Below, piece by piece: positions 4,008 through 49,316 of a DNA stretch of 64,000 bases (the first letter of the stretch is position 1; each line of letters begins with the position of its first letter). Under the pieces are notes generated by a model. That model saw nothing but the letters and a program-made list of their open reading frames with translations. It made no database searches and was not told where the DNA came from. Source of the DNA: a virus. The position numbers were made by a program, and so were the translations under genes. The stretch lies in IMG/VR virus record IMGVR_UViG_3300034198_024209, positions 24,650 to 88,649 of that record; one strand, 5' to 3'.

Positions 4008-4016
4008 ATATTATTT

Positions 4017-31811: not shown

Positions 31812-34800
31812 ATGGACATTGCGTGTCTTGAAAATACATCTCTACTTATAGGTAAAACCGACAGGATACTTTATTCTTTTGGGTTTTCCCCAACTATTTG
31901 TTCTGATCCAGATTTAGTTATTCAAGTGTCTTGCGGTAGGGATCATTCATTAGTATTAAAGGAAGATGGCCTGGTTGATGCATGGGGGAATATTTATTCT
32001 TTAACTGAAAATACAATGCACAGGCCCCCAGCTGGGCTTAGAGGCATAAAGTATATTTCAGCTGGAGAGAAACATGGATTAGCTGTTGAATCAATACATA
32101 ATTCTGTTATTGCATGGGGTTCAAACGAATATGGTCAATCTAATGTTCCAGAGTCTATAGCGGGTATAGAATATCTAAATGAACCAGTAGCAAAAGTTGG
32201 AGCCGGATACAGTTATTCACTCGCTTTAATGGAGTCTGGTACAATTTTGGCTTGGGGCGATATTGTTGGTCAACCGCCCAGCTCTTTATCTACTAAAACG
32301 GTGGTAGATATATCTACAAAAGGAAAACACTCGCTGGCTCTGATAGATGACGGTACAGTTATCGGATGGGGTCAGATAACTAACCTAGATGCGTCAAGCG
32401 TTATACACACAGATGCTGGCAGTATTATTCCTGTTGGATTAAATAATGTAACAAAAATATCTGCTGGTTTTTCTCATTGTTTGGCGCTTAAGTCAGATGG
32501 CACTGTTGTGGCCTGGGGAGACAATACATATGGACAGTGCAATGTCCCAAGTGGATTAAATAACGTTTACTCCATTTGCGCTGGATATAAGCACTCATTA
32601 GTTATAAAAAATGACGGATCTATTGTTGGCTGGGGAGACAATACATATAATCAATGTTCGTGGAGTCAATTATCCCACGTTCAATCAGGCGCAATACAGC
32701 CAAAAGTGGAGGCATATGGACAGACTAGCTATGTGTTAACACGTGGTGGAGATCTTTATTTTTGTGGGACAAGCGGAAGTATTAACTCTACTAGTACATT
32801 AGTGGATAGCAACGTTCAGGACTTTAGAGTTTTTGACTCTAGTGATGTGACTTTTTCTTCCAATGTATACACTCCCCCTTCTGTTGGTTTATACTTAAAT
32901 AGTAACAACAGTAGTAATTTAGATAATTTTTTTATAGGTAGCTTGGGCAATGGGTATGCTGTAAGCTACACCATTGAATTGTGGTTCTATCCAATTGGAA
33001 ACCAAAATGGAAAAACTTTGTTAGCTGATACATTCGCGAATAATCAATGTAGTTTTGCTTTAGCGTGGTTTAATAATGAAGGGACGGGAGCTGGCTCAGG
33101 ATTTAAGTTTGGGTTTTACGGCAGAAAAAGGATTTATGTCGGATGTACTTTAAATTATTATACGTCATATCAATGGTATACTCAAAGCGCTGGAGCACCA
33201 TGGTTAAATACATGGAACCATGTTTTAATTTCGCTAGAGACAGAACAAATTGCGTCTGGAGGAACGATTGGAGGAAAAACAAATTTAGGTGGATATAAAT
33301 ACAACACTAGAGCATACTTAAATGGAGTTCATCAATCCTCTGAAGAGCACTATGTCTTGGTGCCTTCGTGTGGCGCTGGTAGCACAATAAGTGCATATAC
33401 ATATAGCGCCGAAGGAGGCATACCATTATCTAATTCAATTAAAATAGGTAGGAGATGGGACAACAACTCGACTCAATATAAATTCAATGGATATGTAAGA
33501 AATTGTCAGATAAAACATGGCGAAAAAAAACTGAAAAATGAAACATTTACACCAACTCCAGTAAATACTGTATTGACTCCCATCCAAAATGATCTGTCAA
33601 TGCAATTCACAAGCAATAATGCTGGAGAACTTTATTCATACTTTTCACAGGGTTCATATTTTTATGATTTTACTCCAGTTGGGGATGGATGTGCTGTATA
33701 TAAAAAGATAGATGGAACTACTAACTGGCACGGATCTGGCACTGATAACAGAAGACCATCATTTGAGTCCGTTCCCAACAGAATGCCAATGCTTCAGTAT
33801 GGTTTTGAGATAGACTCTACTGGAAAGCTTAAACAGGCCTCTGGTGATTTGGCACTACATGGAGGAAATTTTTATTATTTAAACAATCTTCTAAATTCGC
33901 CAGTTGAAGATGTTATATCTATTTCTTCTTCATCTAGAATACATAGTTTTTACGATGGTAACACCAATTGTCATTTAATTATTTTGACTAAATTTGGGAT
34001 AGTTTCATTCGCGCCTTTCTCTCAATATAGCACTGTATCAAATAAAGTGTCCGTAGCAAAATGGATGAGAGATTTGAGGACAGTAAGTGATTGGTTATAT
34101 GATAGTAGCCCCAATAACACCCCCTTTTATTACAATCCGCAGCTACGTTCGTTAGAACTTAATACTTCCACAAATCCACCATCACCTAATCGGCTTTATG
34201 CAAATCAAAATATATCTGTCAAAGTAGTTAACACTGGTGTTGGTGATTCATCGAATGATTCGTATACGGTAATTAATGATAAAGATTATATCCCCCCATT
34301 AAATTCATATTTTTGTTATTGTAAGGGATTACCAAACTTACTTTACGTAAGTCAATCTGATTGCCAGATAAGGGGAAATACATACGAAGCAGCAAATTTT
34401 GATATATACATTAATTTAAATAATTTTTTAATAGACCCATCTTTAAGGCTATTGAGACCAGCTAGATTGCGGATTAATAAATATTCTTACTTCTTTCATC
34501 AGTTAGGATACGCAAATGTATTTATACCAGACACACTAAATAATGTAGTCGATGAAAATCAGTTTTTGTTAAGTATAAGTGGGCTGCCCAAGAATAACGC
34601 AGTTTTAGACAATGGGGTGAATCTTAAACTGAATGTAGACTATAATGGAAAAAAGAATTTACCTAAAATACCTGGAGAATATATTGTAACTATAACTACA
34701 TATGATTTTAATGTTCATTGCATAAGGTCATTTTGTATTTACGTTGGGGAGCCTGGTATTGCACTAAATGGAAACAAAGAAATAACTGGACAAAATATCG

Positions 34801-37800
34801 TTCCATCAAACAATAGAGCGAATGCTTTTCTCAAGTACTGTAGATTAAAAGACAAAGTATCTGAAATATCTTCTGGTGACACTTCGTTTTTTCATGATGA
34901 CGAAATTTTGTCTATAGATGAGGAAATTCCATTAAAAATAATTCAACAATCATTAATATTTAGAAAACCAATTTTATTTAAAAACAACTGTATATATGTA
35001 TCATCAGGGTATCAGGAATATTATTATCTTGATGTAAATGGTTTAACCTCTACAATATGTGCAGACAATGTAACTGGTACATATAAATATGGAAGTGATA
35101 ATTTTCCGCAGAGAAGTAGGATGGTATTCTTTGATCCATCTGTTGAGATAAAGTACAGAGATTTCAGGATTTCATATAAACAAACTTATTTATACCCGAG
35201 TGCCCCAAGTTTCAATAGTTTGTTTTTTTGGTCATCAACTTTAGACCCAAGAACAGACCAATCAACTTATAGCTTAACAGAGAGTAACGGGTCTATAGGT
35301 ATAATTAATAGTCAGCCAAGGTATTTTGCTAATGATATAAACCTATATAATGTCGAAACAAAAATTCCTTTTATAACGCCATTTCAGGCCCCCCACTTTA
35401 CAGACAAATCAGGAACAGCTTCATCCTGTATTTATCGAGAAATTTACAGAAATGGATCAAAAATAGAAATAAAGGATGGACCAACTCCCAATCCAGATGG
35501 TTCATATGGATGGGCAATAATAGAAGATTATATATATATATCTAGGTATATAGGATTAATTTTTTCTGATGATGTGTATAACACTGGAGAGACAACAGAT
35601 TCAATAATTAGTGATATTTCACTTAGCGTAGGCAATGAAACTATTGATTATTCAAAACCATTTAAGCCAATTTTGTTATCTAATTCAAATGTAGAATCTA
35701 ATTCCTTTAGAGCTATGTGGAAAAGATCAGCAGAGATGACTTCAGCTTTAATGGATATATCTACGGATTTAAATTTTTCCAATATCTTAAGGCAAGATGT
35801 TGTGTGCACTGGATCCACTCAATATAGTTTTCCAGATTCTGGCTCTAATAGGTATTTCGATTTAAACAACAACGGAATAACTGATGTTAGTAAAGCCATC
35901 AGGGAAAATACAAATTATTACTATAGAATAAAGCATAAAAAAAATGAAATAGTTGGAGATTATTCAGCTACACAGCTTGTATCTACACTATTTGAAAAAA
36001 TTAAAGTTAATATAGTTAATTATTTCATAGGTAGTCAGGAGCAGAATATACCAGTGCCAGGTGAATCAAATTCTGGATTTCCGTTTAGTTCGATATACAA
36101 AAATTCTGGCCAAACCTATTTATATAAAATTGACTTTGCCTCTGATGGACAAACATATGTAAATAATATAGATAGAACTGGAAATAATTCAAGTGACGCA
36201 ATAACTATTAAAATATATATAAAAGGTGCTCAATATTTTTTATTTTCTTATGTGATAAATAGATATGGACAACTTATAGATTCTCCGCAAGGCTTCTTAT
36301 CAGAGTCTACAAGCATACTTGCCTCAAATAAAAATATAACGGTAAAGGAATATACTTTTTCTCCGGATATAAGGGATTTAAATCTAGAGATTAGGGCTTA
36401 TCCTATAAATTCTCTTACTGACTTTGTGTATGTCGATACATTTTCTGGTGTAAACTTCTTGGGATTTAATTCGGTTCTACCATTCTTTATAGCAAATAAA
36501 GAGGTAACAGTAAATGAGTGGGAACAAGTTAGGCTTTACGCAGAAGAAAGAGACTGGGGTTATGACCTGCCAGCGGCAAGTAATTATTCCTCTGTGCATG
36601 AACCTATGTCCAATATAAGTTGGTTTGATGCTATAAAATTTTGCAATGCAAAAAGCGAGATGAACTGGTTGAGTCCAGTTTATTTAAATCTAGATGATAC
36701 TGTATACAAAAACGGACAATCTGTTTTACCGCAAATTAAATGGAGTAATAGCGGATATAGACTACCGTTAGAGATAGAGTGGGACTATGCAGCAAGAGGT
36801 GGAGCATTCAGCGGATCATATTTATATAGTGGATCAAATTTACCTAACTCGGTCTCGGTCAATTCATCTAACTCTGGTAACGCAAAAAATGAAGTTGCTA
36901 CATTGGCACCCAACGAAATAGCTGTTTATGATATGTCGGGCAACATTTCAGAGTGGGTACTAGACAACTATTCGCCAGCTGACCCAGTCCCAACGTCACA
37001 GCAAAACCCAGATTATTTATCGACTGTATTACTTTTGCATTTTAATGATGAATCTCCGCCGCTCACGCTAGGACTTTATGAACCAATTAATTCTGATGGA
37101 GGTCAGTCGAGGTTTTTAGCAACTGCATATACTTTTCCTAGCTATATAGGGTTTAAACTAGGCCCAGGTGTAAGAATAAGAAACTGTAAGATATTATTAA
37201 ATGGACCAAATATTGAAAAAACTTTTGGACTTAATCATGGCTGGGATCTGATTAAGTATTTTACATTTACTCACAACATTAATACAACTGCTGAAGGGAT
37301 AGGCACTGAAGGAGGTAGTCCTGGGTTTCCATGGAGCAACGATGTATGTGGTTTTTACTTAGATATATCTCCATCTGAAATAGCTAGTTCAACCTCTATT
37401 ACTATTGATTATGAATATACTTCTTCATGGGCGAGTAAGCAGGGTATAGCTTTTTGGAATAATGTTTCTACTCCTACTGGCTTTAATGGAGACATTAGCT
37501 CTGACTGGATAGGCACATGGGACAACCAAACCTATGCAAGATTGTCATCAAATATAAATAGGAACACAATAATAAATCAATCAAGTCGAGATGGTTCAAT
37601 ACACAGAAGAAGGACTATAATACAAAAAACAGCTGGGCAATATCACTTTATAACTGAATCATCTGCAATTTCTTTTCCTACAATAAACGACAGTAGTTTA
37701 CTGGGGTTATCCCCACTTAATTATTCTAATAGCTCTCCAAGTTCTCCAGTGATAATGAACACTGATAGTAAGTTTGATGGATATTCGCTTTTGTCTAGTA

Positions 37801-40511
37801 ATTCAAGGAACTTAGGGGTAAATTTTGAAAATAACAATTTTTATGATTTTTGTGACGGTTTTACTGTAGACTTTTGGTTTAAATTTTTAGGTTACGACAC
37901 GTCTGTAGATTCTTGGTATAACACTAACTCACATCTAATTCGTTTTAGTAGCTCTTATTATAAGTTTGGAGAATGGAGCGTTTATTTGAGTGAGGAGTCC
38001 AACAATGTTTACTTGAACGTATCTGGTCCAGATAATTTTATATTAAATGATAAAAATAAACTAATACAACTCAACCAATGGAATCATTTTGCTTGGTCAT
38101 ATGACCCAAAAACATTTAATCATATAATATTTTTAAATGGAATAATTTATAAAACAGGAATTAAACCAATTTATGTAACTGACTCTACTGTTACAAAATA
38201 TTTTAGAATATGCTCTAGGCCCAACTGGTCTTACCACGTTTTCAATGGTTATGTAGATGAACTTTATTTTACCTCAAAAATAAGATATACTCAGGACTTT
38301 AATTTACCGACCTCCCCGTATAATAGCTCAAAGCCAGACTCACTTGTGTTAGATATATCTAAAGACAGTCTAATAAGGGGGGGCAATTATACATCTTCCA
38401 GTGACGATCTAGAAATAAACAATAGAACAAATTTGTATTCATCTCGCTCGACAAGAGATAATAAATTTGGACTCAGGCTAGTTAAGAGTAATTGGAACCC
38501 CGTAAACGGGCAAATAGGAAGACTATTTATAAATCAAATAACACAAATAGATAAAAATGCAGCAGTTGTTTATTTAAATGGAGCCTCTAATGAATCTCTA
38601 TCTAGTAATGATTTATTGCAAGTAAGCGTAGACAATGGAATTACTTGGACTAATACTTCAACCAACAATCTTTTTTCTGGGTGGGAAATAAATAACAATC
38701 AATATGAAACAACATCTACTTATGAAGCAACTTATGGGCTTTTAATAACTATACAGCACAATAAAACTAATTTTATTTTACTTAGAGCATTAAAATTTTC
38801 TCACACACAAAATCAGACATCTAATGTTATTGTTTTTGACAACTTTGTTCAGGCCCCAGATATATCTTCTATAATTGCTTTGTCATATAAGACTACAATA
38901 ATAAGAATTAATTATTCATACACCGAATCATCTAATACATTGAAATATCAATACTCAATAAATAATACAAGTGATTTTGTTGACGTAAGTAATGTAAACA
39001 CATTTTCAAGCTATTTGGTAGTCCAGGACACGCAAATTGACAGAACACTTTTTATTAAAATAAGGGCAATCGATCAAAACAACATTCCATCGTTTTCATC
39101 AAATTCAAAATTAATTGAATTCAACTTATATCAACCAGTAATATTAGCTGCATCTCTCTCTGCTGACATAAATAAGCCGATAACAAATAATTTACCGCTT
39201 GCCGTTTTATATACAATTGATTTTGGTCCATTAGAGCCATCATCTTTTCAGTACTATTTTGGCGAGCAAGACAATACAAGCTCATGGAGTGATGTTGCAT
39301 CTAGCTCTGTTTTGATAAGCTCAAATGTGGCATCAATTAATTTATCTGTATTAGATGCACAAACGATACCAACAAATATTGTTTCTAGGTATGGAACGAT
39401 ATGGGGTAATTATAGTGAGCCATCTTCATCTATTGTTTCAAGCAACATTCAATTACCTAACCCCACTACTCCAACTATTACATCTGCAGACTGGTCTGGA
39501 TTTAATGAAGTGTCTGGAGTGCTTAGCGTATTCTTTGACTATGACGGCAATTTTTATCCAAATTATTCGAGGACTACCTTTTTATACAATATAAACAATT
39601 CTTCTGAATGGTTGAATGGGGGGGCATCTATACAAAAATTAGATACTGGTAACAATAAGTATAAATTAACTATTGCTCAATTTCCGTTTTTCGCCACAAA
39701 CCCTGTATCAATAAAAATAAAAATACAGTTAATATACTCAAACACTGAAAAAAGAATTAGTCAAGAGTCTAACATGCTTGAATTTGACACAATTCCACAG
39801 ATATCCCAAAATCCAGTTATCTTAGAAGTAATCAGTTCTTCAGTCGTGGAAGAATATACATATCCAGGGTATAATATGGTGGTCAGACCTTCGATACCTA
39901 CAACAGTTAAGTTTAGTTTTGCACAGAATACAGATTATTATTATAACTATCGCTACTTAATAGAATCGCCAGGACAGTCGGCATACTGGGAGTATGCTTA
40001 TTATGTATATCCAGATTACTCAGGGGCTAATAATAAATTAACTTCAATACCATTGCCAATAAGTACGGAAGAACGTACGTTAAAAATAAGAGCATCTTTT
40101 TATTCAGATCAATATGTTGAACTGACGTCTGATCCATTTAATTTGCCAATACTTACTTCGCTTCCAGCATACGAAAACAGGCCGTTGCTCTCTTTGGTGT
40201 CTCAAATTGGGTATTCAGATTATAACTGGGAGGAAGATACCTCCTCAGTTACAATGAGCGTTATGGTTGTGCCACAAACTCAGGTAAGCGATATAATCGG
40301 TTATGAATTTAATTATAGGCCTTCACAATCCGGCACAGTTAAAAATAAAATAAACATTGGAGCTGGCACCCTTAATTATGGCGAATTAACTTTCCCTGAT
40401 ATTTATATTACCGGTCTGAGCGCCTGGTCACTAGATATAACAGTTAATGCTGTTTATTCGGATGGGACAAGATCTCAAGAATCGAACACCATAGGTTTTT
40501 ATTTATGGTAA
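31812..40511 (+). CDS. giant 2899-aa adhesin-like protein: RCC1 repeats, LamG, FN3-like, split FGE-sulfatase/CLec domain
   Basis: N-terminal SAG..H.LAL..DG.V.AWG.N.YGQ repeats; TIELWF..WNH LamG motifs; EVT..W, RLP.E.EW.YAARGG and DMSGN..EW, then RGG...R...FGLR. Confidence 0.85.
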   Translation: MDIACLENTSLLIGKTDRILYSFGFSPTICSDPDLVIQVSCGRDHSLVLKEDGLVDAWGNIYSLTENTMHRPPAGLRGIKYISAGEKHGLAVESIHNSVIAWGSNEYGQSNVPESIAGIEYLNEPVAKVGAGYSYSLALMESGTILAWGDIVGQPPSSLSTKTVVDISTKGKHSLALIDDGTVIGWGQITNLDASSVIHTDAGSIIPVGLNNVTKISAGFSHCLALKSDGTVVAWGDNTYGQCNVPSGLNNVYSICAGYKHSLVIKNDGSIVGWGDNTYNQCSWSQLSHVQSGAIQPKVEAYGQTSYVLTRGGDLYFCGTSGSINSTSTLVDSNVQDFRVFDSSDVTFSSNVYTPPSVGLYLNSNNSSNLDNFFIGSLGNGYAVSYTIELWFYPIGNQNGKTLLADTFANNQCSFALAWFNNEGTGAGSGFKFGFYGRKRIYVGCTLNYYTSYQWYTQSAGAPWLNTWNHVLISLETEQIASGGTIGGKTNLGGYKYNTRAYLNGVHQSSEEHYVLVPSCGAGSTISAYTYSAEGGIPLSNSIKIGRRWDNNSTQYKFNGYVRNCQIKHGEKKLKNETFTPTPVNTVLTPIQNDLSMQFTSNNAGELYSYFSQGSYFYDFTPVGDGCAVYKKIDGTTNWHGSGTDNRRPSFESVPNRMPMLQYGFEIDSTGKLKQASGDLALHGGNFYYLNNLLNSPVEDVISISSSSRIHSFYDGNTNCHLIILTKFGIVSFAPFSQYSTVSNKVSVAKWMRDLRTVSDWLYDSSPNNTPFYYNPQLRSLELNTSTNPPSPNRLYANQNISVKVVNTGVGDSSNDSYTVINDKDYIPPLNSYFCYCKGLPNLLYVSQSDCQIRGNTYEAANFDIYINLNNFLIDPSLRLLRPARLRINKYSYFFHQLGYANVFIPDTLNNVVDENQFLLSISGLPKNNAVLDNGVNLKLNVDYNGKKNLPKIPGEYIVTITTYDFNVHCIRSFCIYVGEPGIALNGNKEITGQNIVPSNNRANAFLKYCRLKDKVSEISSGDTSFFHDDEILSIDEEIPLKIIQQSLIFRKPILFKNNCIYVSSGYQEYYYLDVNGLTSTICADNVTGTYKYGSDNFPQRSRMVFFDPSVEIKYRDFRISYKQTYLYPSAPSFNSLFFWSSTLDPRTDQSTYSLTESNGSIGIINSQPRYFANDINLYNVETKIPFITPFQAPHFTDKSGTASSCIYREIYRNGSKIEIKDGPTPNPDGSYGWAIIEDYIYISRYIGLIFSDDVYNTGETTDSIISDISLSVGNETIDYSKPFKPILLSNSNVESNSFRAMWKRSAEMTSALMDISTDLNFSNILRQDVVCTGSTQYSFPDSGSNRYFDLNNNGITDVSKAIRENTNYYYRIKHKKNEIVGDYSATQLVSTLFEKIKVNIVNYFIGSQEQNIPVPGESNSGFPFSSIYKNSGQTYLYKIDFASDGQTYVNNIDRTGNNSSDAITIKIYIKGAQYFLFSYVINRYGQLIDSPQGFLSESTSILASNKNITVKEYTFSPDIRDLNLEIRAYPINSLTDFVYVDTFSGVNFLGFNSVLPFFIANKEVTVNEWEQVRLYAEERDWGYDLPAASNYSSVHEPMSNISWFDAIKFCNAKSEMNWLSPVYLNLDDTVYKNGQSVLPQIKWSNSGYRLPLEIEWDYAARGGAFSGSYLYSGSNLPNSVSVNSSNSGNAKNEVATLAPNEIAVYDMSGNISEWVLDNYSPADPVPTSQQNPDYLSTVLLLHFNDESPPLTLGLYEPINSDGGQSRFLATAYTFPSYIGFKLGPGVRIRNCKILLNGPNIEKTFGLNHGWDLIKYFTFTHNINTTAEGIGTEGGSPGFPWSNDVCGFYLDISPSEIASSTSITIDYEYTSSWASKQGIAFWNNVSTPTGFNGDISSDWIGTWDNQTYARLSSNINRNTIINQSSRDGSIHRRRTIIQKTAGQYHFITESSAISFPTINDSSLLGLSPLNYSNSSPSSPVIMNTDSKFDGYSLLSSNSRNLGVNFENNNFYDFCDGFTVDFWFKFLGYDTSVDSWYNTNSHLIRFSSSYYKFGEWSVYLSEESNNVYLNVSGPDNFILNDKNKLIQLNQWNHFAWSYDPKTFNHIIFLNGIIYKTGIKPIYVTDSTVTKYFRICSRPNWSYHVFNGYVDELYFTSKIRYTQDFNLPTSPYNSSKPDSLVLDISKDSLIRGGNYTSSSDDLEINNRTNLYSSRSTRDNKFGLRLVKSNWNPVNGQIGRLFINQITQIDKNAAVVYLNGASNESLSSNDLLQVSVDNGITWTNTSTNNLFSGWEINNNQYETTSTYEATYGLLITIQHNKTNFILLRALKFSHTQNQTSNVIVFDNFVQAPDISSIIALSYKTTIIRINYSYTESSNTLKYQYSINNTSDFVDVSNVNTFSSYLVVQDTQIDRTLFIKIRAIDQNNIPSFSSNSKLIEFNLYQPVILAASLSADINKPITNNLPLAVLYTIDFGPLEPSSFQYYFGEQDNTSSWSDVASSSVLISSNVASINLSVLDAQTIPTNIVSRYGTIWGNYSEPSSSIVSSNIQLPNPTTPTITSADWSGFNEVSGVLSVFFDYDGNFYPNYSRTTFLYNINNSSEWLNGGASIQKLDTGNNKYKLTIAQFPFFATNPVSIKIKIQLIYSNTEKRISQESNMLEFDTIPQISQNPVILEVISSSVVEEYTYPGYNMVVRPSIPTTVKFSFAQNTDYYYNYRYLIESPGQSAYWEYAYYVYPDYSGANNKLTSIPLPISTEERTLKIRASFYSDQYVELTSDPFNLPILTSLPAYENRPLLSLVSQIGYSDYNWEEDTSSVTMSVMVVPQTQVSDIIGYEFNYRPSQSGTVKNKINIGAGTLNYGELTFPDIYITGLSAWSLDITVNAVYSDGTRSQESNTIGFYLW

Positions 40512-40571: not shown

Positions 40572-41021
40572 ATGAAACTTAAATTACCATCATTCATCGA
40601 AACCTATATCGTCAAGTTTGCCTTAAGCAAGGCAGGACCTTTTATACAAAAAGGTGTGTCTTTGCTTGCTGCATATCTTGTCGCTCTATTGTCCCAAAAA
40701 GTACCAGGCCTTGAGGCTCATCTAGATGTAGCCGTAATAACTGGTATCATTTGGGCAGTAATTGATAGTTTGATTAATCTCCTGCCATCAGACATCATCA
40801 AAAGATATGGAGCGAATATTCAGCTCTCACTTGCAACAGCAGGCAAGTCACTCAAGATTGACGGACTAGCTTTGGCTAAGACAGCTGAAGCTGCAAGCGA
40901 AATAGTAAGGAAGGAACAACTATTGGTCAAAAAACAAAAAGTTGTCCTTAACGAAAAAAGCAAAAATAATTCAGTAAGAAGAAAAAGACCGCCATTCTCT
41001 CCTAATGCAAAAATGAGATAA
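40572..41021 (+). CDS. membrane protein, holin-like candidate
   Basis: Two hydrophobic segments and a basic C-terminus. Confidence 0.45.
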   Translation: MKLKLPSFIETYIVKFALSKAGPFIQKGVSLLAAYLVALLSQKVPGLEAHLDVAVITGIIWAVIDSLINLLPSDIIKRYGANIQLSLATAGKSLKIDGLALAKTAEAASEIVRKEQLLVKKQKVVLNEKSKNNSVRRKRPPFSPNAKMR

Positions 41022-41040
41022 ACTAAAACAATAAAAGCAA

Positions 41041-41078
41041 AAATAAAAGAGCGAGATTAAAATCTCGCTTTTTTATTT
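41041..41078 (+). terminator. intrinsic terminator (bidirectional-like)
   Basis: AAATAAAAGAGCGAGAT-TAAA-ATCTCGCTTTTTTATTT. Confidence 0.8.
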
Positions 41079-41138
41079 GTTGGGTAGATATTTTTGATGT
41101 ATTATTTAAAAACAATTAATTTATTTTTTTGAACTAGA

Positions 41139-41483
41139 ATGACTCCAGACGCAACACCTAATCCAAATACACTTATCGAACTAGCAAATACCTTTGGTTT
41201 AGGCGTTGCAGCAATGTGTGGATGGATTTATTTCTTGATCAAAGAAATAAGAGACTACAAAGAAAAAGAAAGAAACTACACAAAAGAGCTTCTTGATTTG
41301 TCTAAAGAAAATATTGCAACAATGCATTCATTAACTCAGGTTGTCGAAGCTATCGCCCCTGCAATAACTGTAAGCTCTAATGACAATAAAAATAACCTCG
41401 AATCATCGGTACTCAGGATAAAGGAACACATAAACAATCAGTGCTCTATACTTGAGAAAATACTAAATAAAGATACTCAGTAA
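41139..41483 (+). CDS. single-TM protein, holin-like candidate
   Basis: TM segment FGLGVAAMCGWIYFLI followed by a coiled coil. Confidence 0.5.
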   Translation: MTPDATPNPNTLIELANTFGLGVAAMCGWIYFLIKEIRDYKEKERNYTKELLDLSKENIATMHSLTQVVEAIAPAITVSSNDNKNNLESSVLRIKEHINNQCSILEKILNKDTQ

Positions 41484-41484
41484 A

Positions 41485-41979
41485 ATGCTAGAGCAAAACA
41501 CTAAACTACAATTACTTGAGGCCCACAATAAATTGAGAGAAGCTTCTAAGCGCGCTGCTTCTAGTATTATAGATGACGCTAGGCTATTGTCCTCTTTTGA
41601 AAGAAATGATGAAAACGGAGAAGAAAAAGTAGTAGAAAAAAAATTGGTGAGGGGGTTGTGGATAGAGCTATTTGATGGAGTTAAAATGATGCTGATTGAT
41701 GATGACTCTGGATGGACTCGTGCTCTTTGTCAGTCAAGTGGACTTAGCCCTAAGCATTATCACACTTACTATGAAAAAATAAAAGTGATTGATGGATATG
41801 TGCAGGAGATGACCACAAAGAAAGTTTATTCATCAGGAGACACAATAGAGCACAAACCAAATATATTACATCAACCGTTCATAAACGGATTAGTTATGAT
41901 GATGTGGAAACCGCCACTACCAAATTTACATAACACTCCATCTATTCTAGACCCAGTTATCTATCATATAGCTTCTTGA
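41485..41979 (+). CDS. cupin-like protein
   Basis: HYH...E...V..G and GD......N..H cupin-type motifs. Confidence 0.5.
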   Translation: MLEQNTKLQLLEAHNKLREASKRAASSIIDDARLLSSFERNDENGEEKVVEKKLVRGLWIELFDGVKMMLIDDDSGWTRALCQSSGLSPKHYHTYYEKIKVIDGYVQEMTTKKVYSSGDTIEHKPNILHQPFINGLVMMMWKPPLPNLHNTPSILDPVIYHIAS

Positions 41980-42072
41980 TTAAAAATAGTTGTTGATTAA
42001 ATAACAAAAATTTAATAGTATTATTTTTGGCGGATTTATCCGCCTTGTTTGTTGTTTGTGTTGTTGTTAAAT

Positions 42073-42105
42073 GGCGGGGGGGCCTAGGTCCCCTCGCCTA
42101 TTTTT
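42073..42105 (+). terminator. intrinsic terminator
   Basis: GGCGGGGGGGC-CTAG-GTCCCCTCGCC followed by TATTTTT. Confidence 0.7.
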
Positions 42106-42182
42106 ATTATAATTTTTGCCTTGACTATTGCTATCCTTAAATACATTCTACCCGCTAAATATTATTTATCAAAATACATAAC

Positions 42183-42869
42183 ATGGAACAACAATACAAA
42201 AGTAGCTCACACAAATCAGAGCAGCCATTAATTGGAAGAGGATTGCTTTTTAGTTATGACGAAAAAGACAAAGACTTCTTGATGTTTGCAAATAAACCTA
42301 AAATGGATAATACAATTAGGCATTCATGGAAAATAGGCAACATCCTCAATCAAGGTACATCTAGCCAATGCGTTGGGTATTCTTGGGCACAATTCATGCA
42401 AACTCAGCCATGGTCATACGAGGACAAACCCAAAATAACTCCAGAGGAAATATATAAAAAGTCTCAGCAAGTAGATGAGTGGCCAGGGGCTGAACCAGAT
42501 TATTATGGAACAAGCGTAAGAGCAGCAGCCAAGGTACTGAAGGAGTTAGATTTAATTTCTAGTTATGTCTGGGGATATAGCGTTGAAGACGCTGCAAAAT
42601 TTATATCAGAAAACGGTCCAATAGTTGTTGGAAGCAAATGGTATTATGGAATGTCAAATCCAGACCAAAATGGATTTTCAAGACCGATATCTACATATGA
42701 GGGTGGGCATGCCTGGTTAATCTACGGAGTAGATTGCCAATGGGAAACATTTTTTTGTGTAAATAGTTGGGGTCCGTCACATGGAAAGAACGGAAGGTTC
42801 TTTATAAAATTTAGCGATATGGAAAAATTAATAAACCAAGGAGCTCAGCTATGCAGCGCATTAAAATAG
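42183..42869 (+). CDS. papain-like (C1) cysteine peptidase
   Basis: NQG.SSQCVG (Gln, Cys), GGHA (His) and NSWG..HG.NG.F (Asn). Confidence 0.9.
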   Translation: MEQQYKSSSHKSEQPLIGRGLLFSYDEKDKDFLMFANKPKMDNTIRHSWKIGNILNQGTSSQCVGYSWAQFMQTQPWSYEDKPKITPEEIYKKSQQVDEWPGAEPDYYGTSVRAAAKVLKELDLISSYVWGYSVEDAAKFISENGPIVVGSKWYYGMSNPDQNGFSRPISTYEGGHAWLIYGVDCQWETFFCVNSWGPSHGKNGRFFIKFSDMEKLINQGAQLCSALK

Positions 42870-43126
42870 TATATTTATTTGTAGTTTTATTTTTAATTTT
42901 TTCTATCTCTGGATGTTCTAATAACTTTACAGAAGAGATAATTAAAATTAGTTATTATTCATATATAGTTGAATTAGATAAACACGGAAAAGACATTAAG
43001 ACTTGGATTCCGGAAAAAAACTCTATCAAGGTGGATATAAATAATGATGTATTAAGTTTTATAGATACTGAAACAAAAAAACAAATAAAGCTTAGTGGAA
43101 GCTATAAGCTAATAAAAGTTAAGTAA
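42851..43126 (+). CDS. putative lipoprotein
   Basis: Signal-like hydrophobic N-terminus with lipobox ISGC. Confidence 0.55.
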   Translation: MQRIKIVYLFVVLFLIFSISGCSNNFTEEIIKISYYSYIVELDKHGKDIKTWIPEKNSIKVDINNDVLSFIDTETKKQIKLSGSYKLIKVK

Positions 43127-43135
43127 TATTTAGAT

Positions 43136-45643
43136 ATGCCATGTAAAAATGATGACGGCTGGCCAGAAGGAGGGTCTTTTACTGAAATTGGTCAATGTGT
43201 TACCTGGGATAAATTAGTTGCAGTAAGGCTTTCGTGGAATAGGGTATGGGAACTTCTCAAGAAAGAAGAAAGAGCCCCAGAATATAGATATGGATGGGGG
43301 TCCCCTTCAGGGAATAAATACTCGCCGGATGGCTGGAAAACTGGGTGCAAAAATAGGCGAGAAGAGATAGAATCGCTTGCGGACATAAGAGGATACATAA
43401 GCATAAGGCTGGATTATTGGGGAAATGTTGATGCCGTTGCTTTTGTTATAGATGGAGGCTCTATATTAAATAGACTGTCTTATCAGGGGGTTGCGTGCTC
43501 ATCACAGAGTTGCGGTGGATGTCAGGGGCAGGAATCTAAATACGCTTATACTGATAATAGAGGAATGGGGCGATGGGGGGCACACCTAAAGGACCCGTGC
43601 CACGGGTGTACAATATTTACATTAGATGCTAAATGCGATGTTAGAAAAGAAGATATAGTATATCAAACAGTAATACTAGATGTCATAGAAGATTATTACA
43701 AAAAGGGTCCAAATACTGCTTGTCCAATTAACAGGCATTGGCAGTGGCTATATAATCCATCTTCTATGCCCGTAATGGAGGGGATGCCCAATATCTGCGG
43801 TATAGAATTTGATTGGAGATCTAGCCAAGGTATTCAAATTTTTAAATCAGCACTTGATTTATTTCCAGTTAAGATGAAATGCGCTGATGAACAAGATCCA
43901 TATACAACAATAATTGAAAATTGCTGTGGAGTTAATGCAATTGCTCACTGGACTGAAGAGTGGGATCCAGCAGACCAAGGATCTGCATATTACCAGTGCC
44001 CAGAAGACGAAATTATTCCAGGGGCTTTTGCTCCTGGAAATATAAGAAGATTTTGTAAAAGAAGAATAAAGTATATTGATTTATATAATGGATTCTATGG
44101 GCATGTTACCCAAATAATAAGGGCAAAGCATTTAAACCATATATGGGGAATGGTACAGGGATTGTCAAAAACCTTAAGAGAATGCAAACAAGAAAAATGT
44201 GAATATAAACACGGTGCAGAAAAAAAGAATACTTGGGTATATAAAGACCAAGTACCTCAGGTGGGTAAAAAAGAAACACTACAGCAAAGGAATGCAGGCT
44301 CTAACTGTGATTATTGTGAACTTCCTAAGGTCGGTCAACCAATTTGTTCGTGTGAGTGGGATGACTTGAAACACTTATTGGACGCAGAACTTACTGGGGT
44401 TAGTTGCCTTGATGAATGGAGGGTAAAAGCTGGGACTAAAAGACCTGGTGATGGTCCCCCATATTTACGATATGGGGAGCCAGATTCAGCCCCTACTGAA
44501 TGCTCTCAATGTATTGGGAAATGTTGTTACAACTGTAAATGTGAAGGCATGACAGAAAATGACTGCATGAATATAGAGGAGCTTAAGCTTAAAGACTTAA
44601 AAGAAGAACTTAAGGCTGGCCCAGTGTGGCTGGGAGTATACGGTCAAACAAACGGAAATTATATTGATACAAAATGTACTGGTTGTGATAAAAGAGGAGA
44701 TCCATTACCTTGTAATGGGTGGGAAGAGGGGGATACTCATGACCCAGATATGTATTTATTTGAAATTTGTGGGGCAAAATCTGCTTGCCACTCAATGAAA
44801 AAAGAAATAGATCTAGAAACTCTTAAGGAGATTGGTGATTTTATTTGCATGGATAAAGGCGATGAATGCAAATCAGGTGAGTGTGAATGTTGTTGTATGG
44901 ATGCAACAAAATGTCAATGTGATGCAATGGAGGGTACATGGGTAGTTCCAGACATTGAACAACTAAAACAGGGAAAACAACCAGGATGCTCAACACTATG
45001 TGAAGATCCAAATACATGTACTGAAAAAATGTGCGAAGGTACATGGGAGTTGGTAGGTGGCTCTGGGAATTCACTAGGGGGTGGCAAATATTGCGATAAA
45101 TGCTACAAAGGCTTAAAAAAATGGTATTGGGGGTCCTGCGAAGATAAATCCCCAACAACATATGAGTTAAAGAAAACTCAATGCGGTCAAACTACGGTAG
45201 TAGAGACTTGGACATCATCATGTGATGACCCAAAAAAAATAGAACCCGATAGTTCAGGCTTGTGCGATAAAGCAGAAGATGGTGAAGACGAGCCTCAATG
45301 CCAATGTGGTGACGACGGGTGTATAAGTGGTAGCGCAAGTGGATCGGGAAGCGGAACAGACACAAGCAGTGGGTGCGTAGATAGTAAATCAGCTACAACT
45401 ACGCCAGCTGAATATGATGGAGTGTATACATGTACTGGAAGCGTTGATGATAATGGCGAGATGAGCTGGGGGGGGGGAAGTTATTCATCCCCCTCAAGCA
45501 CTGATACTGGACCATGTTATGGAGCACACAGCTTTAGCTTTACGGCTAACCTTAAAAAAGGGAGTACAGTTACTTGTATGGCTGGATCATGGGGTGGAGA
45601 CGTGGGGTGCACCATAACTTGTTGCGGAACGGCAGCTCCATGA
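43136..45643 (+). CDS. very cysteine-rich protein (835 aa, ~63 Cys)
   Basis: Manual count of about 63 Cys including CC, CCC, CxC and CxxC clusters; no signal peptide. Confidence 0.8.
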   Translation: MPCKNDDGWPEGGSFTEIGQCVTWDKLVAVRLSWNRVWELLKKEERAPEYRYGWGSPSGNKYSPDGWKTGCKNRREEIESLADIRGYISIRLDYWGNVDAVAFVIDGGSILNRLSYQGVACSSQSCGGCQGQESKYAYTDNRGMGRWGAHLKDPCHGCTIFTLDAKCDVRKEDIVYQTVILDVIEDYYKKGPNTACPINRHWQWLYNPSSMPVMEGMPNICGIEFDWRSSQGIQIFKSALDLFPVKMKCADEQDPYTTIIENCCGVNAIAHWTEEWDPADQGSAYYQCPEDEIIPGAFAPGNIRRFCKRRIKYIDLYNGFYGHVTQIIRAKHLNHIWGMVQGLSKTLRECKQEKCEYKHGAEKKNTWVYKDQVPQVGKKETLQQRNAGSNCDYCELPKVGQPICSCEWDDLKHLLDAELTGVSCLDEWRVKAGTKRPGDGPPYLRYGEPDSAPTECSQCIGKCCYNCKCEGMTENDCMNIEELKLKDLKEELKAGPVWLGVYGQTNGNYIDTKCTGCDKRGDPLPCNGWEEGDTHDPDMYLFEICGAKSACHSMKKEIDLETLKEIGDFICMDKGDECKSGECECCCMDATKCQCDAMEGTWVVPDIEQLKQGKQPGCSTLCEDPNTCTEKMCEGTWELVGGSGNSLGGGKYCDKCYKGLKKWYWGSCEDKSPTTYELKKTQCGQTTVVETWTSSCDDPKKIEPDSSGLCDKAEDGEDEPQCQCGDDGCISGSASGSGSGTDTSSGCVDSKSATTTPAEYDGVYTCTGSVDDNGEMSWGGGSYSSPSSTDTGPCYGAHSFSFTANLKKGSTVTCMAGSWGGDVGCTITCCGTAAP

Positions 45644-45658
45644 TAAATATTTCTTAAT

Positions 45659-46132
45659 ATGGACAACGAAAAAACAAGATTCAAGCTAAAAGCCATTAGA
45701 AACAATATACCATATAGACCTAGTGGATACTATGATGATGTCGTATCAAAAGGGATTATAATTGATGATTATGTCGAAATGCCATTTCAGGAAGCTCTAA
45801 AACTTATAGAAAAGTATTCAGAGAAGAGTCCTATTAATGGTGTTGAACTTGATGCCTCTAAGTGGGGACCTATATTATGGAAAACTTTTCATGATAGAAC
45901 AAAACAATACGATGGAGTTTCCATAGAGGCAGAGAAGAGATGGTTCTACAAAGTTTTTGGATCATGGATTCCTTGTGGCAAGTGTAGGAATCATTTAAAT
46001 GAAATAATATCAGAAATGCCACCCAGTCTTGAGTCTAGAGAGTCATATGTAAAGTGGGGCATAGACATACACAACGAAGTGAATAAACACCTAGGAAAAA
46101 CAATATTTGATCCAGAAAAAGAAAATGAATAA
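45659..46132 (+). CDS. Erv1/Alr-family FAD-linked sulfhydryl oxidase with N-terminal extension
   Basis: Family motifs WGP..W..FH, IPCGKCRNH and W...HNEVN..LGK. Confidence 0.9.
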   Translation: MDNEKTRFKLKAIRNNIPYRPSGYYDDVVSKGIIIDDYVEMPFQEALKLIEKYSEKSPINGVELDASKWGPILWKTFHDRTKQYDGVSIEAEKRWFYKVFGSWIPCGKCRNHLNEIISEMPPSLESRESYVKWGIDIHNEVNKHLGKTIFDPEKENE

Positions 46133-47000
46133 CAAAAAATATATATGGAGTTTTTCATCTTTAAATTATGGCTATAAAATAGACATAAAAGATTTAATTT
46201 TTTTATGCTATTCTGTCGAGCTCGTCAAAAAATTCTCTAATAACGTACATATATACACAGACAAAAGAGGTTTAGATGAAATACAAAAAATTGGAATAAA
46301 AGCAAATACAACTATAGTAGACTTCAAGAGATACAATAATATTAGTTTAAATAAAATTTACTCAAAAATAAAAACAATAGAGATACAGGACTCAAATTTT
46401 TGTATGCTAGATAAATATGTTTTTTTATTTAGAGACCCGGAAACGTCTTTGACTGCGTACAGCGATACAAATACAAGTGATAGCACATTTGTTCAATCTC
46501 TTGAGAATAAAAATAAATGGGGAATGTTGTATAAAAATTTTTGCGACAAACTAAAAGAAAACAACATACAAATGTGTGAAGAGCTAGACACATACATAAA
46601 AAATGGACAATACTCTGGATATAATTGTTCCTATTTAGACAATATAGATAAAGAATTAAAAGATAGATTATGCTATGAATCCATAAACTTATTAAATCAA
46701 TTAGATCGACTTAACATATCGGTTAAGTGCTTAATTTGTGAGTCTTTATTGCTTGCATTAAGCAATAACAGTAACTACAAGATATCCCCCATCTTCAGTG
46801 AAGTAGACTTGCAAAAACAATATAATCCAACTGATTCATTGAAGATAGATGGATACACCAATATATATTCATCTAAAGATAAAATTTCGTTAAATTTTAT
46901 GCATCCAGATATAAGGACAATGTTGATTTTCTTGAGTGAATCAAATAGTGATTTCTACAACAATTTAATAAAAATAAACAGCAATTTGGAGGTTAGATAA
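46125..47000 (+). CDS. putative nucleotide-sugar transferase-like protein (DUF6734-like, degenerate DxD)
   Basis: SV..........IYTD..G, K...I..Q...F..LDK.VFL and GYNC pattern. Confidence 0.35.
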   Translation: MNNKKYIWSFSSLNYGYKIDIKDLIFLCYSVELVKKFSNNVHIYTDKRGLDEIQKIGIKANTTIVDFKRYNNISLNKIYSKIKTIEIQDSNFCMLDKYVFLFRDPETSLTAYSDTNTSDSTFVQSLENKNKWGMLYKNFCDKLKENNIQMCEELDTYIKNGQYSGYNCSYLDNIDKELKDRLCYESINLLNQLDRLNISVKCLICESLLLALSNNSNYKISPIFSEVDLQKQYNPTDSLKIDGYTNIYSSKDKISLNFMHPDIRTMLIFLSESNSDFYNNLIKINSNLEVR

Positions 47001-47001
47001 A

Positions 47002-48375
47002 ATGGAAAATTCTAATTACCCGTTTTTATTTAAAAATGAGCTTAACGAAGAGTGCCTATTGTTTTGTCTATCCAGTAGACACGAAAAAAATTTAAAGCTG
47101 GGTGAATTCCCGTACACTAAGGAACAAAATAAAATATTGTTACTTAATTTAAATACAAGAGAGGAGTATGAATTAAATATTCCAGTGTTTTTATCTAGTG
47201 ATCATAAGTTATTAGATACTTATATCTACGATTATGGAGAAACGGAAAAAATAACAGAATTAAATGATGGCACACAAAATTTAATTGAAATAATCGATTT
47301 AAAGAATCCACATGTAAAAGCTATCGATAATAAAATATTGTTAATTTTTACTGCTTCTGTTGTTTTTAAGGGGAACTCCAAGATACAAAACTTCTTAGCA
47401 AAGATGGAGTCATCATCGCTCAATCTTAAAGACTTGTCTAATCTAGAATTTATACAATATTCAAAAGCGGGTACGCTCACTGATACAGGAGATATTTTAT
47501 ATGTACAGGAACAGAAAGATCAATATTTGATAGATAAGTTAGTGCTAAAGAAAAACGGTGTAGATAAAAAGCTGGAAATAGACTTAAAATACTTTGATAT
47601 TAAATTAATAGATCGAGTATGTAGTGTGTATGATACACCAAATTTTGTTTTTACGTGTACTCTTGCATCCGATGGACTGACTCACACATTTATGCTGTAT
47701 GACAATTTATCTAAATGTTTTGAAGTTTTTTTAGATAAAAACAATCCTATGCCTATAAGTACTTTTTACTTAAATAGATTTATTTATGTAAATCAAGAAA
47801 AGGATTTAACTCAATATATTAATAGACATTTATTGTTTAATAAAAGCGACAATAATTTTTGTGAAACCAGTGGAATAACTAATTATATAGACATCCCTGA
47901 TACCATAGAATTAGAACCAATGTCAATTAGGGGTAACAATAAAAAATTTAAGTTCCCATCATATATTGAATATAAAATGCCTGTCTCATCAAATACAGTC
48001 AATAGTGACAAAAGTGATCAGCAAAAAATCAATACACTAATTACTGAAACAAATAATATTGATGTCTCCAGTGAGGCTCCAACGAACAATGAACTTATTT
48101 CAAGCGAAGGTAAAGGATATCCAGGTGTATTCACTATGGCAAAAAACTTTGGATCTAGTATGGTTAAGTGGGCTAAATCTGGCTTCCAAACAGTAGATGA
48201 AGAAAGTATATTTAATGCAAGACTTGAAATATGTAAAGCCTGTCCAGAGTGGGACTCTAAGGCTCTAAGTGGAACAGGTAGATGCAAAATATGTGGATGC
48301 TCCACTAAAGCAAAATTAAGACTGGCTACAGAGTCATGTCCTAAGAACTTATGGGGACCCGTAACTGAAATATAG
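47002..48375 (+). CDS. protein with C-terminal 5-Cys domain
   Basis: RLEICKACPEW...GRCKICGC..KAK....ESCPKNLW. Confidence 0.65.
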   Translation: MENSNYPFLFKNELNEECLLFCLSSRHEKNLKLGEFPYTKEQNKILLLNLNTREEYELNIPVFLSSDHKLLDTYIYDYGETEKITELNDGTQNLIEIIDLKNPHVKAIDNKILLIFTASVVFKGNSKIQNFLAKMESSSLNLKDLSNLEFIQYSKAGTLTDTGDILYVQEQKDQYLIDKLVLKKNGVDKKLEIDLKYFDIKLIDRVCSVYDTPNFVFTCTLASDGLTHTFMLYDNLSKCFEVFLDKNNPMPISTFYLNRFIYVNQEKDLTQYINRHLLFNKSDNNFCETSGITNYIDIPDTIELEPMSIRGNNKKFKFPSYIEYKMPVSSNTVNSDKSDQQKINTLITETNNIDVSSEAPTNNELISSEGKGYPGVFTMAKNFGSSMVKWAKSGFQTVDEESIFNARLEICKACPEWDSKALSGTGRCKICGCSTKAKLRLATESCPKNLWGPVTEI

Positions 48376-48380
48376 CCACT

Positions 48381-49316
48381 ATGCCACAAAAAAGAAAAAT
48401 AAACTTCCCTAACAAAGTAATAGTAGAGAACATCAATCTACTGGAAAAGCAATACGGTAAAAAATATTTTGGATTAGCGTATAAAGAAGATAGTTTAATA
48501 AAAATTGATCCAACTCAATCACCAAAAGAATATCTTGATACATTAATACATGAATCACTGCATATATTATTTAATGACTGGGAAGAGGAAGAGATATATG
48601 ATTTAGCTGTTTTCTTTTCTAATTTTTTATGGGAAAATGGCTATAGAAAAATACACAACCAGCTTGACTCAGCCGCAGTCCTAGGGGTATCTCCTAAGGG
48701 ACATAATTCAATCCAAAAAAACATTAGAAAAATGAAGATTCCTCCTCCAATTAAAAGCAATGATTACTCTAAAATAAAAGAAGAGTATGAAAAAACGTTT
48801 TCAGAGATAGTGCTAAAAGACAGAGATACTGTATCTAAAGTTGTAGATAAAATAATAAAAAATAAAGATGTATATCAAAAAATAGATATAGCTCCATGGT
48901 ACTGGATAGGTTGTATACATTTCAGGGAGTCTACCCTAAACTTTAAGACGCACCTACACAATGGAGATCCGCTTACCGCAAAAACAGTTAATGTGCCAGT
49001 GGGTAGGCCAAAGAGTCCACCAACTAAACTTGGAGGATATGCATGGGATATTAGTGCAAGAGATGCTTTATTTTTAAAGTCACTGGATAAGTGGTTTGAT
49101 TGGTCTATACCTGGAATGCTATTTCAAGCGGAGCGATACAATGGATGGGGATACAGACTGTACAAAAATAATAATTCTCCATATTTATGGAGTGGTACCC
49201 AATTTTGGGGTTCCGGTAAGTATGTCAAAGACGGTAAATATGATCCAATCGCCTCAAAAGATCAAACTGGTGTCGCAGCAATGCTCACTGAAATGAAGAG
49301 TAGACAAATATTCTAG
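48381..49316 (+). CDS. HExxH domain fused to a lysozyme-like domain (endolysin candidate)
   Basis: N-terminal DTLIHESLH; C-terminal IHFRES..F..HLHNGDPL, ERYNGWGY, SPYLWSGT and GKYV.DG.YD. Confidence 0.75.
   Translation: MPQKRKINFPNKVIVENINLLEKQYGKKYFGLAYKEDSLIKIDPTQSPKEYLDTLIHESLHILFNDWEEEEIYDLAVFFSNFLWENGYRKIHNQLDSAAVLGVSPKGHNSIQKNIRKMKIPPPIKSNDYSKIKEEYEKTFSEIVLKDRDTVSKVVDKIIKNKDVYQKIDIAPWYWIGCIHFRESTLNFKTHLHNGDPLTAKTVNVPVGRPKSPPTKLGGYAWDISARDALFLKSLDKWFDWSIPGMLFQAERYNGWGYRLYKNNNSPYLWSGTQFWGSGKYVKDGKYDPIASKDQTGVAAMLTEMKSRQIF

Follow-up and report, generated by a model that had tools for sequence, protein, structure and literature searches.

A tailed bacteriophage genome was found to encode a homologue of the Erv1/ALR sulfhydryl oxidases directly behind a gene for an 835-amino-acid (aa) protein that contains 63 cysteines. 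The DNA analysed, hereafter the window, is a 64-kb stretch of the 88.6-kb IMG/VR virus record IMGVR_UViG_3300034198_024209, for which CheckV gives a completeness estimate of 68%; positions are those of the window unless a locus is named. The module consists of four tightly packed genes on the + strand: the Cys-rich protein (43136..45643), the 157-aa oxidase (45659-46132), which begins 15 nt past the preceding stop codon, a DUF6734 protein (46107..47000) and a 457-aa protein (47002..48375) with a six-Cys C-terminal domain. We consider it probable, with moderate confidence, that the oxidase docks onto the Cys-rich protein, referred to here as its client, and forms disulfides in it before lysis, the client itself probably being a virion protein at a fibre tip.

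A sequence-only reading of this DNA had assigned the 157-aa protein to the Erv/Alr enzymes on the basis of its motifs, and profile, motif and fold analyses all bear this out. The Pfam Evr1_Alr hidden Markov model (PF04777) matches residues 73-154 with 62.3 bits against a cut-off of 27.6 (E 5.7e-17), and a six-frame search gives 64.2 bits for the same family. The three motifs WGPxxWxxxH, PCxxCxxH and HNxVNxxLxK are present, and W69, G70, P71, W74, H78, P105, C106, C109 and H112, as well as H138, N139, V141, N142, L145 and K147, are invariant in six phage oxidases. In solved Erv structures the W..W..H residues, the His after CxxC and the HNxVNxxLxK motif contact flavin adenine dinucleotide (FAD). 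Phage copies with 46-76% identity all keep these catalytic and FAD motifs unchanged, which indicates that the oxidase is under selection. A profile built from the six phage sequences finds chains of Erv1p, Erv2p, ALR and African swine fever virus (ASFV) pB119L with E values of 5e-14 to 2e-4, and also of mimivirus R596; the best match has E 4.6e-14, and 17 of the 18 sequences listed belong to the Erv family. The Pox_E10 profile scores 13.9 bits, below its cut-off of 27. The protein is thus a genuine Erv1/ALR homologue and is predicted to act as an FAD thiol oxidase.

An AlphaFold2 (AF2) model of the oxidase (mean predicted local distance difference test, pLDDT, 85.2) has helices at residues 66-82, 89-103, 107-119, 127-145 and 152-155, corresponding to the four-helix-bundle FAD-binding fold plus a short fifth helix. 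The top Foldseek matches are Erv2p, ALR, Erv1 and pB119L, with template modelling (TM) scores for the core, normalised to the target, of 0.61-0.77, and the core superposes on most of these with a root-mean-square deviation of 2.1-2.6 over 88-97 columns. The catalytic core (45875..46120, active site C106-G-K-C109) shares with Erv1, ALR and Erv2 (PF04777; PDB codes 2hj3, 1jr8, 1oqc and 4e0h) the four-helix FAD core, the motifs and the position of the CxxC, which opens helix 3; in the alignment, PC106GKC109 falls on the PCxxC of both Arabidopsis Erv1 and yeast Erv2. It differs from them in being encoded by a tailed phage, in having no second Cys pair and in carrying a new N-terminal domain. The Erv1/Erv2/ALR subgroup is marked by a structural CX16C pair close to the C-terminus and by a shuttle Cys pair carried on a flexible arm. 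In the phage protein C106 and C109 are the only two Cys residues, and Ile and Pro occupy the positions aligned with the Erv2 pair, a departure from that subgroup and not from the family.

The client was described in the sequence-only reading as an 835-aa protein with about 63 Cys and no signal peptide. The count is exactly 63 (7.54%), the highest share among the listed + strand open reading frames (ORFs) of at least 100 aa (the runner-up has 5.0%), and the protein, which ends in ...TCCGTAAP, also contains 12 His, 8 CxxC, 4 CC and 5 CxC. Hydropathy likewise reveals no hydrophobic leader or membrane segment: the Kyte-Doolittle 19-residue mean peaks at 0.93, and the 12-residue maximum within the first 36 aa is 0.92, compared with 3.34 for a neighbouring lipoprotein-like ORF. 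As it has no leader peptide, the client would be folded in the host cytoplasm. It matches no Pfam or PHROG family, and homologues were found as proteins P0007-P0009 (P numbers denote proteins and L numbers loci recovered in our searches). At 37 of the 63 Cys positions, both P0008 (29% identical overall) and P0009 (28%) also have Cys, and 33 are shared by all four aligned full-length proteins; retention of the 37 in such distant homologues argues that the Cys content is not due to chance. Among isolated phages (50,697 records), neither the client nor the oxidase has a relative at E<=1e-3; at E<=10 there are 27 insignificant matches, the best annotated being a Pinkberry virus 'sulfhydryl oxidase' at E 4.

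The last 140 aa of the client (45221..45640) comprise a variable Cys cluster and a Gly/Ser linker, followed by a conserved all-beta knob that contains 7 invariant Cys and carries a CC..AP tail. Across six aligned client C-termini 8 Cys are invariant, 7 of which lie inside the knob, and the same domain also occurs as stand-alone proteins of 130-142 aa in other phages. The AF2 model, calculated from these 140 residues together with five homologues, has 8 strands, with core blocks at pLDDT 82-92 and a disordered Cys/Gly/Ser-rich segment at residues 1-31 (pLDDT <50). Its fold matches include CBM6/35, PA14, C1q/TNF, BclA and the PRD1 P5 knob (TM 0.33-0.43), while among viral models (BFVD) 69 matches were obtained at E<=1e-3 (TM 0.33-0.48), including phage tail proteins and C1q/collagen fibre knobs. 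The knob is accordingly modelled as a jelly-roll sandwich of the type seen at phage fibre tips, a weak and generic likeness that does not imply kinship.

Structure and complex prediction had been proposed as a check in the sequence-only reading: the Erv fold was recovered as described above, and contact between oxidase and knob received weak support. The complex score has a median of 0.56 (runs of 0.66, 0.45 and 0.56), compared with 0.04 for the best of three controls; at least 35% of contacts recur between runs, and partner pLDDT is at least 66. Of 80 solved complexes, 58 pass the score mark applied, as do 2 of 110 mismatched pairs; passing scores of 0.60 or less comprise 7 of the 80 solved complexes and both of the mismatches that passed. 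Contact was already plausible from the gene pairing, but a score of this size is not decisive.

The sequence-only reading had also noted an extra N-terminal domain of ~60 aa on the oxidase, and the Evr1_Alr match does leave about 70 N-terminal residues outside the core. This N-domain (45659..45844, motif RPxGYY[DE]DVVSxG) is predicted by AF2 to have the secondary structure beta-alpha-alpha-beta-beta-alpha and is covered by no Pfam family. In a collection of 5.8 billion proteins, four oxidase relatives carry the N-terminal extension (53-76% identity), and the two-domain enzyme was found in six loci of the viral and metagenome scans (L003 and L031-L035). Searched against 1.84 billion representatives, a profile of the first ~60 residues alone matches 372 representative clusters (E<=1e-3); the N-domain is an undescribed, widespread domain. 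The single pattern RPxGYY[ED]DV[VIL] found no relative in the cellular genomes of 185,579 species. When the best 150 of the 372 representatives were scanned against Pfam, 37 matched DUF6171 (E<=1e-3) and 6 matched Evr1_Alr, with one member each matching a TOD1/MUCI70 glycosyltransferase-like family, GT2 and two sulfotransferase families. A CxxC...CxxCxC...CP pattern follows the N-domain in 58 of these 150, making N-domain, linker, amphipathic helix and six-Cys domain the usual architecture. P0012 (244 aa) and P0014 (304 aa) contain N-domain, Erv core and six-Cys domain in a single chain. Glycosyltransferase-like and sulfotransferase domains are joined to a row of three N-domains in P0013 (777 aa) and P0127 (719 aa), with a six-Cys domain as well in P0013; these fusions suggest that the N-domain also delivers enzymes that transfer sugar or sulfate.

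Two genes downstream of the oxidase, the 457-aa protein does end in the CxxC..CxxCGC..CP..W domain previously noted, which reads CKAC..CKICGC..CPKNLW. The protein has no assignment over residues 1 to about 375, and its last ~80 aa (about 48127-48372) consist of an amphipathic helix followed by the six-Cys domain. Residues 393-451 match phrog_13558 (E 2.7e-11), and Pfam DUF6171 is matched at profile positions 35-80 only, with 18.8 and 21.2 bits, below the cut-off of 27; we therefore call the domain DUF6171-like. DUF6171 and phrog_13558 proteins share the signature CxxC..CxxCGC..K..CPxxxW, of which the window copy forms the tail of a longer protein. The link between this domain and the oxidase, suggested by the sequence-only reading, holds beyond the window: a six-Cys protein of 75-95 aa lies directly downstream of the oxidase in L003, L031 and L035, and the two are fused in P0012 and P0014. 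The six-Cys end of the window protein shares 44% identity with the free-standing 75-aa protein of L003 and closely resembles the last 80 residues of P0014. In the L032/L033/L034 lineage a 664-aa protein, and not a six-Cys gene, comes after the oxidase. The consensus for the domain is CxxC-x9-14-CxxCxC-x12-CP. Judging from these arrangements, the Erv core may have been inserted between the halves of an N-domain/six-Cys protein, with the gene split later; in the window, the six-Cys half would then have become the tail of another protein, with the DUF6734 gene in between.

The sequence-only reading raised the question of whether Erv homologues stay adjacent to Cys-rich genes. They do in the related loci, and the unit that is conserved proved to be the N-domain plus a Cys-rich protein rather than the oxidase itself. 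In all six N-domain-Erv loci that can be judged (the window, L003, L031, L033, L034 and L035), the immediately preceding gene is related to the last ~110 residues of the client; L032 starts at the oxidase gene and so falls outside this count. In L003, L031, L033 and L035 the partner stands alone, with 132-142 aa and 11-14 Cys, and the L034 copy is cut by the contig start. In an extended sample of the window and 22 N-domain loci from our searches, the distance from the end of a Cys-containing gene to the N-domain gene is -6 to +25 nt in 23/23. The paired genes encode 3-63 Cys (2.6-23%); two are cut by contig ends, the 3-Cys case being a 74-aa fragment, and the complete ones range from 2.6% Cys (L070) to 22-23% (57 Cys in 258 aa in L079, 41 Cys in 180 aa in L080). 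All but one of the 23 paired proteins end in Pro (22/23, corresponding to about 17 of 18 separate lineages), and the usual form is C-x(0-4)-[A/P/D/N]-P. The junction is a 4-nt ATGA or GTGA overlap in 18 of 23 loci; such an overlap fixes only the last base of the final codon, and the terminal Pro is also kept where it is missing (the window, L034, L070 and L082/83).

The N-domain helpers differ in their C-terminal modules. Six loci carry Erv, five carry the six-Cys domain (L050, L069 and L074-76), a third module with the motif GPGTELKxLL...CxC...WC and no Pfam family is present in L055 and L077-86, and the L070 helper has yet another. Erv is thus one of several alternative C-terminal modules on the N-domain. 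The third helper type (L055:1233-1673, L077:2977-3420 and L078-L086) consists of the N-domain followed by a ~90-aa domain with the fuller motif GPGTELKxLL..CxCNxRAxxMD...WC...IxGWLxEE..KRxLPF; its clients are the richest in Cys (15-23%), contain many CC pairs and end in CPP, CDP or CAP. Three of these (L079:2255-3016, L080:1610-2149 and L077:2126-2977) have 41-57 Cys in 180-284 aa, arranged in short repeats with a CC pair each 6-10 residues, and by eye resemble disulfide-braced solenoids. Client N-termini often begin M-x-C. With regard to neighbours, the gene upstream of the L077 pair has a virion structural PHROG match (E 1e-8), the neighbours in L074 have weak tape-measure and tail-fibre PHROG matches, and in L069 the knob family of the window is paired with an N-domain/six-Cys helper behind 886-aa and coiled-coil proteins. 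A higher-GC lineage (L035:2079-2483 and 3871-4503; the same in L003 and L031) has two leader-bearing proteins flanking the triad, by eye a small 3D/RlpA-like protein and a trypsin-like protease, with glycosyltransferase-like genes nearby.

By comparison, the 26 other viral and 31 other metagenome Erv loci contain the catalytic core only, at 22-37% identity, apart from L050 and L055. In these core-only loci (L002, L004-L029 and L036-L068, again apart from L050 and L055) no N-domain, Cys-rich neighbour or six-Cys domain was found. Nine of the viral core-only contigs are named as giant-virus bins, and L002 and L037 look by eye like eukaryotic-virus DNA.

The regularity of the pairing is compatible with a simpler role for the N-domain proteins, namely as assembly or holding factors for Cys-rich fibre-tip proteins. 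Erv would then be optional, with a minor or different role, and the client Cys would be oxidised only after lysis in oxic water or would remain reduced. The universal N-domain pairing, set beside the presence of Erv in only 6 of the best 150 representatives, argues for this, as do the lack of Erv in all five other records carrying the pair (two of them 93-100% complete), the 4-nt overlaps, which suggest co-translation of the partners, and P0010, in which up to five N-domains occur in tandem without an enzyme. Nevertheless, we regard this explanation as unlikely. The invariance of the Erv catalytic and FAD motifs speaks for an enzyme under selection, the position of Erv between N-domain and six-Cys domain in the P0012 and P0014 chains suggests that all three serve the same task, and the remaining N-domain fusions (TOD1/MUCI70, GT2 and the two sulfotransferase families) also involve enzymes.

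A number of observations weigh against docked, oxidase-driven disulfide formation in the client. The Evr1_Alr profile finds nothing at E<=0.01 in any of five other phage records with a Cys-rich and N-domain pair, two of which are near-complete (100%, with terminal repeats, and 93%), although the same search did recover the Erv of the window. In L069, on a 10-kb contig, the knob keeps all its invariant Cys without Erv. Together with the Erv-less records, this indicates that the oxidase is an add-on of one lineage and not a requirement of the client class. The oxidase lacks a shuttle pair as well as the CX16C pair found in Erv1/Erv2/ALR, and no thioredoxin or glutaredoxin (PF00085, PF00462) was found at E<=0.01 in the 68%-complete 88.6-kb record. 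The oxidase-knob complex score lies in the weak band, an exhaustive structural scan of the knob gave Z<=6.5, in the range of common arrangements and generic matches, and the ESM Atlas model of the whole client is unusable (pLDDT 0.34), rendering its fold matches meaningless. The client follows lysis-like genes in the window, and its small version in L003 and L035 follows replication genes. Finally, the CxxC pairs of the client, some spaced 9-26 residues apart, would also suit zinc sites.

This last point belongs to a further alternative, in which zinc or iron-sulfur clusters would occupy the Cys-rich protein as well as the six-Cys domain, the module serving to load or protect metal sites and not yielding disulfides as its end product. 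Cytoplasmic Cys clusters are usually metal-binding, which favours such a role in general terms. The eight CxxC of the client include pairings such as C126/C129...C155/C158 and C391/C394...C404/C406, and the six-Cys pattern recalls zinc ribbons and, in its ...CP ending, ferredoxin-type sites. However, a fused disulfide-forming oxidase is hard to square with keeping thiolates available for metal, the clients of L077, L079 and L080 combine 15-23% Cys and many CC pairs with few His, and the invariant Cys of the knob are spread over beta strands and do not form CxxC pairs. A metal-centred function is, in our estimation, decidedly improbable.

We infer the following mechanism for the disulfide-forming oxidase. 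The client would be made without a leader peptide and folded in the host cytoplasm, where the N-domain would bind it and so tether the enzyme. The Erv four-helix FAD domain would use its single CxxC to take up electrons from client thiols and would hand them on to oxygen, so that disulfides are in place in the client before lysis. The six-Cys domain of the 457-aa protein would be part of the same machine, perhaps as a thiol relay acting through the invariant CxxCGC or as a metal-stabilised holder.

A broader proposal, put forward tentatively, is that the N-domain serves as the address label of an undescribed phage system that matures hyper-Cys-rich virion (fibre-tip) proteins by means of interchangeable effectors. 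The client would be recognised perhaps by its Cys...Pro C-terminal tail, and the effectors would comprise the Erv oxidase, the six-Cys relay or metal domain, the third, three-Cys domain, glycosyltransferases and sulfotransferases. Such an arrangement would resemble the leader-recognition domains of peptide-modifying enzymes, at the scale of a protein.

The origin of the oxidase was addressed with a quick tree of catalytic cores (65 rows, 108 columns). Of 74 rows collected, 69 have a profile match reaching position 120 and 65 are left once identical ones are removed; rows with phmmer E>1e-4, the window's own locus (L001) and cellular sequences were left out. The 15 N-domain-bearing phage sequences form one side of a branch with a Shimodaira-Hasegawa-like approximate likelihood ratio (SH-aLRT) support of 94, and the phage group lies among metagenomic sequences labelled giant-virus-like by assumption. 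Because long branches meet there and cellular sequences were left out, donor and direction of transfer are not assignable.

The window itself belongs to a tailed bacteriophage (Caudoviricetes), with portal and tail genes present. The sequence-only attribution to a bacteriophage is confirmed by the 577-aa ORF at 51441, which matches the Salmonella phage Arash 'portal protein' (E 3e-38) and Vibrio phages (E 8e-51). Collagen-like tail-fibre proteins are encoded, with tail-fibre PHROG matches down to E 4e-118, as are a ribonucleotide reductase and four tRNAs, and nearly every gene lies on the + strand; Terminase_6N had no match in the incomplete (68%) record. Contamination by a giant virus was considered and rejected in view of the phage portal, tail-fibre and Mtd_N genes and the phage peptidase family in the window. 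Two further proteins look like receptor-binding candidates: a 324-aa protein with an Mtd_N domain (19463-20437) and a 2899-aa protein with RCC1 repeats and an FGE-sulfatase (C-type-lectin-like) domain (31812-40511). A 483-aa ORF among the late genes (57357-58808) matches RNA polymerase Rpb2 domain 2 (26.9 bits, cut-off 21.7) and represents a stand-alone fragment of a multisubunit RNA polymerase beta subunit.

Upstream of the client (40572-43126) are small membrane-type ORFs, a cupin-like ORF, a papain-like peptidase and a lipobox-like ORF, a region that may be a lysis or cell-wall cluster. The peptidase (42183-42869, + strand) matches phrog_16701 (E 6e-46) and has relatives in 52 isolated phages, and the 91-aa lipoprotein-like ORF (42851-43126, + strand) directly precedes the client. 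A strong terminator-like hairpin on the + strand (42073..42098; 11 pairs, 9 of them G-C) lies ahead of the peptidase, and a consensus scan found no comparable + strand site before 49316. On this consensus scan alone, the genes from the peptidase (42183) through the 311-aa ORF directly after the module (48381-49316; HESLH, HExxH-like, near its N-terminus; weak PHROG matches, E 0.005) may be a single transcription unit. A promoter scan gave 47 sites, compared with a shuffle mean of 48.2, and thus no excess. Within the module, the DUF6734 protein (291 aa if started at the ATG at 46125) scores 42.3 bits against a cut-off of 27. DUF6734 is common in phages, and its Atlas neighbours are DUF6734 clusters, mostly from Uroviricota; the gene has no counterpart in the related Erv loci, no support was found for a role as a modifying enzyme, and a literature search returned no paper mentioning DUF6171 or DUF6734.

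The position of the module behind the papain-like peptidase and the lipoprotein-like ORF, possibly within one transcription unit, would fit an oxidase that targets host thiol pools or proteins, or that makes hydrogen peroxide, in aid of takeover or lysis, with the adjacency to the client reflecting shared timing. However, the pairing persists where the surrounding genes differ, these being for replication in L003 and L035 and structural in L032 and L069, and the N-domain tracks Cys-containing genes in every locus of the sample. We give a host-directed function very little credence.

A client-directed oxidase has several counterparts among known systems. Virus-encoded Erv oxidases are a textbook feature of large eukaryotic DNA viruses, and cytoplasmic viral disulfide pathways include vaccinia E10R-A2.5L-G4L, ASFV pB119L (PDB 3gwl), mimivirus R596 and baculovirus P33; the oxidases of such viruses are taken to act on proteins of the virus itself, oxidising them within a reducing compartment. 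ASFV pB119L is among the best structural matches to the phage enzyme (TM 0.75-0.77). The phage module differs in having a bacterial host and in the strict pairing of the oxidase with one client gene, for which a tether is proposed, and, unlike the three-step poxvirus pathway, no thioredoxin-fold partner was found in the 68%-complete record. Erv2p carries a C-terminal CGC tail; the six-Cys domain of the phage, in trans or in cis, may stand in its place. The Erv family has been described as a eukaryotic one that also occurs in a few groups of bacteria and in some dsDNA viruses (PMC10598087). Our literature search combining sulfhydryl oxidase or Erv with phage found no paper describing a bacteriophage Erv.

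The gene arrangement also brings to mind tail-fibre genes paired with chaperones, such as lambda stf-tfa, Mu S-U and T4 gp37-gp38/gp57A. As in the stf-tfa type, the phage helper gene lies directly behind the gene for a knob-ended product and appears to be translationally coupled to it; unlike that type, the helpers carry redox or other enzyme modules, and the clients are extremely Cys-rich with a Cys...Pro tail. The N-domain helpers have no sequence relation to the Tfa families (no Pfam or PHROG match). In E. coli carrying the CyDisCo system (Erv1p plus an isomerase), yeast Erv1p is by itself enough for disulfides to form in the cytoplasm. The use of an Erv oxidase for disulfides in a reducing bacterial cytoplasm is what we propose for the phage; its enzyme is natural and, as proposed, client-tethered, and in contrast to CyDisCo neither a protein disulfide isomerase (PDI) nor a DsbC-like isomerase was identified.

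If the docked oxidase acts as proposed, this phage would have solved the problem of making disulfide-rich extracellular proteins in the reducing bacterial cytoplasm, which would explain how phages can afford proteins with 7-23% cysteine. The module would represent a natural, client-tethered counterpart of the engineered disulfide-forming E. coli strains, and would define a new docking domain as well as two orphan Cys domains. Should the N-domain prove to be a more general address label, phages would build disulfide-braced adhesins within the reducing bacterial cell.

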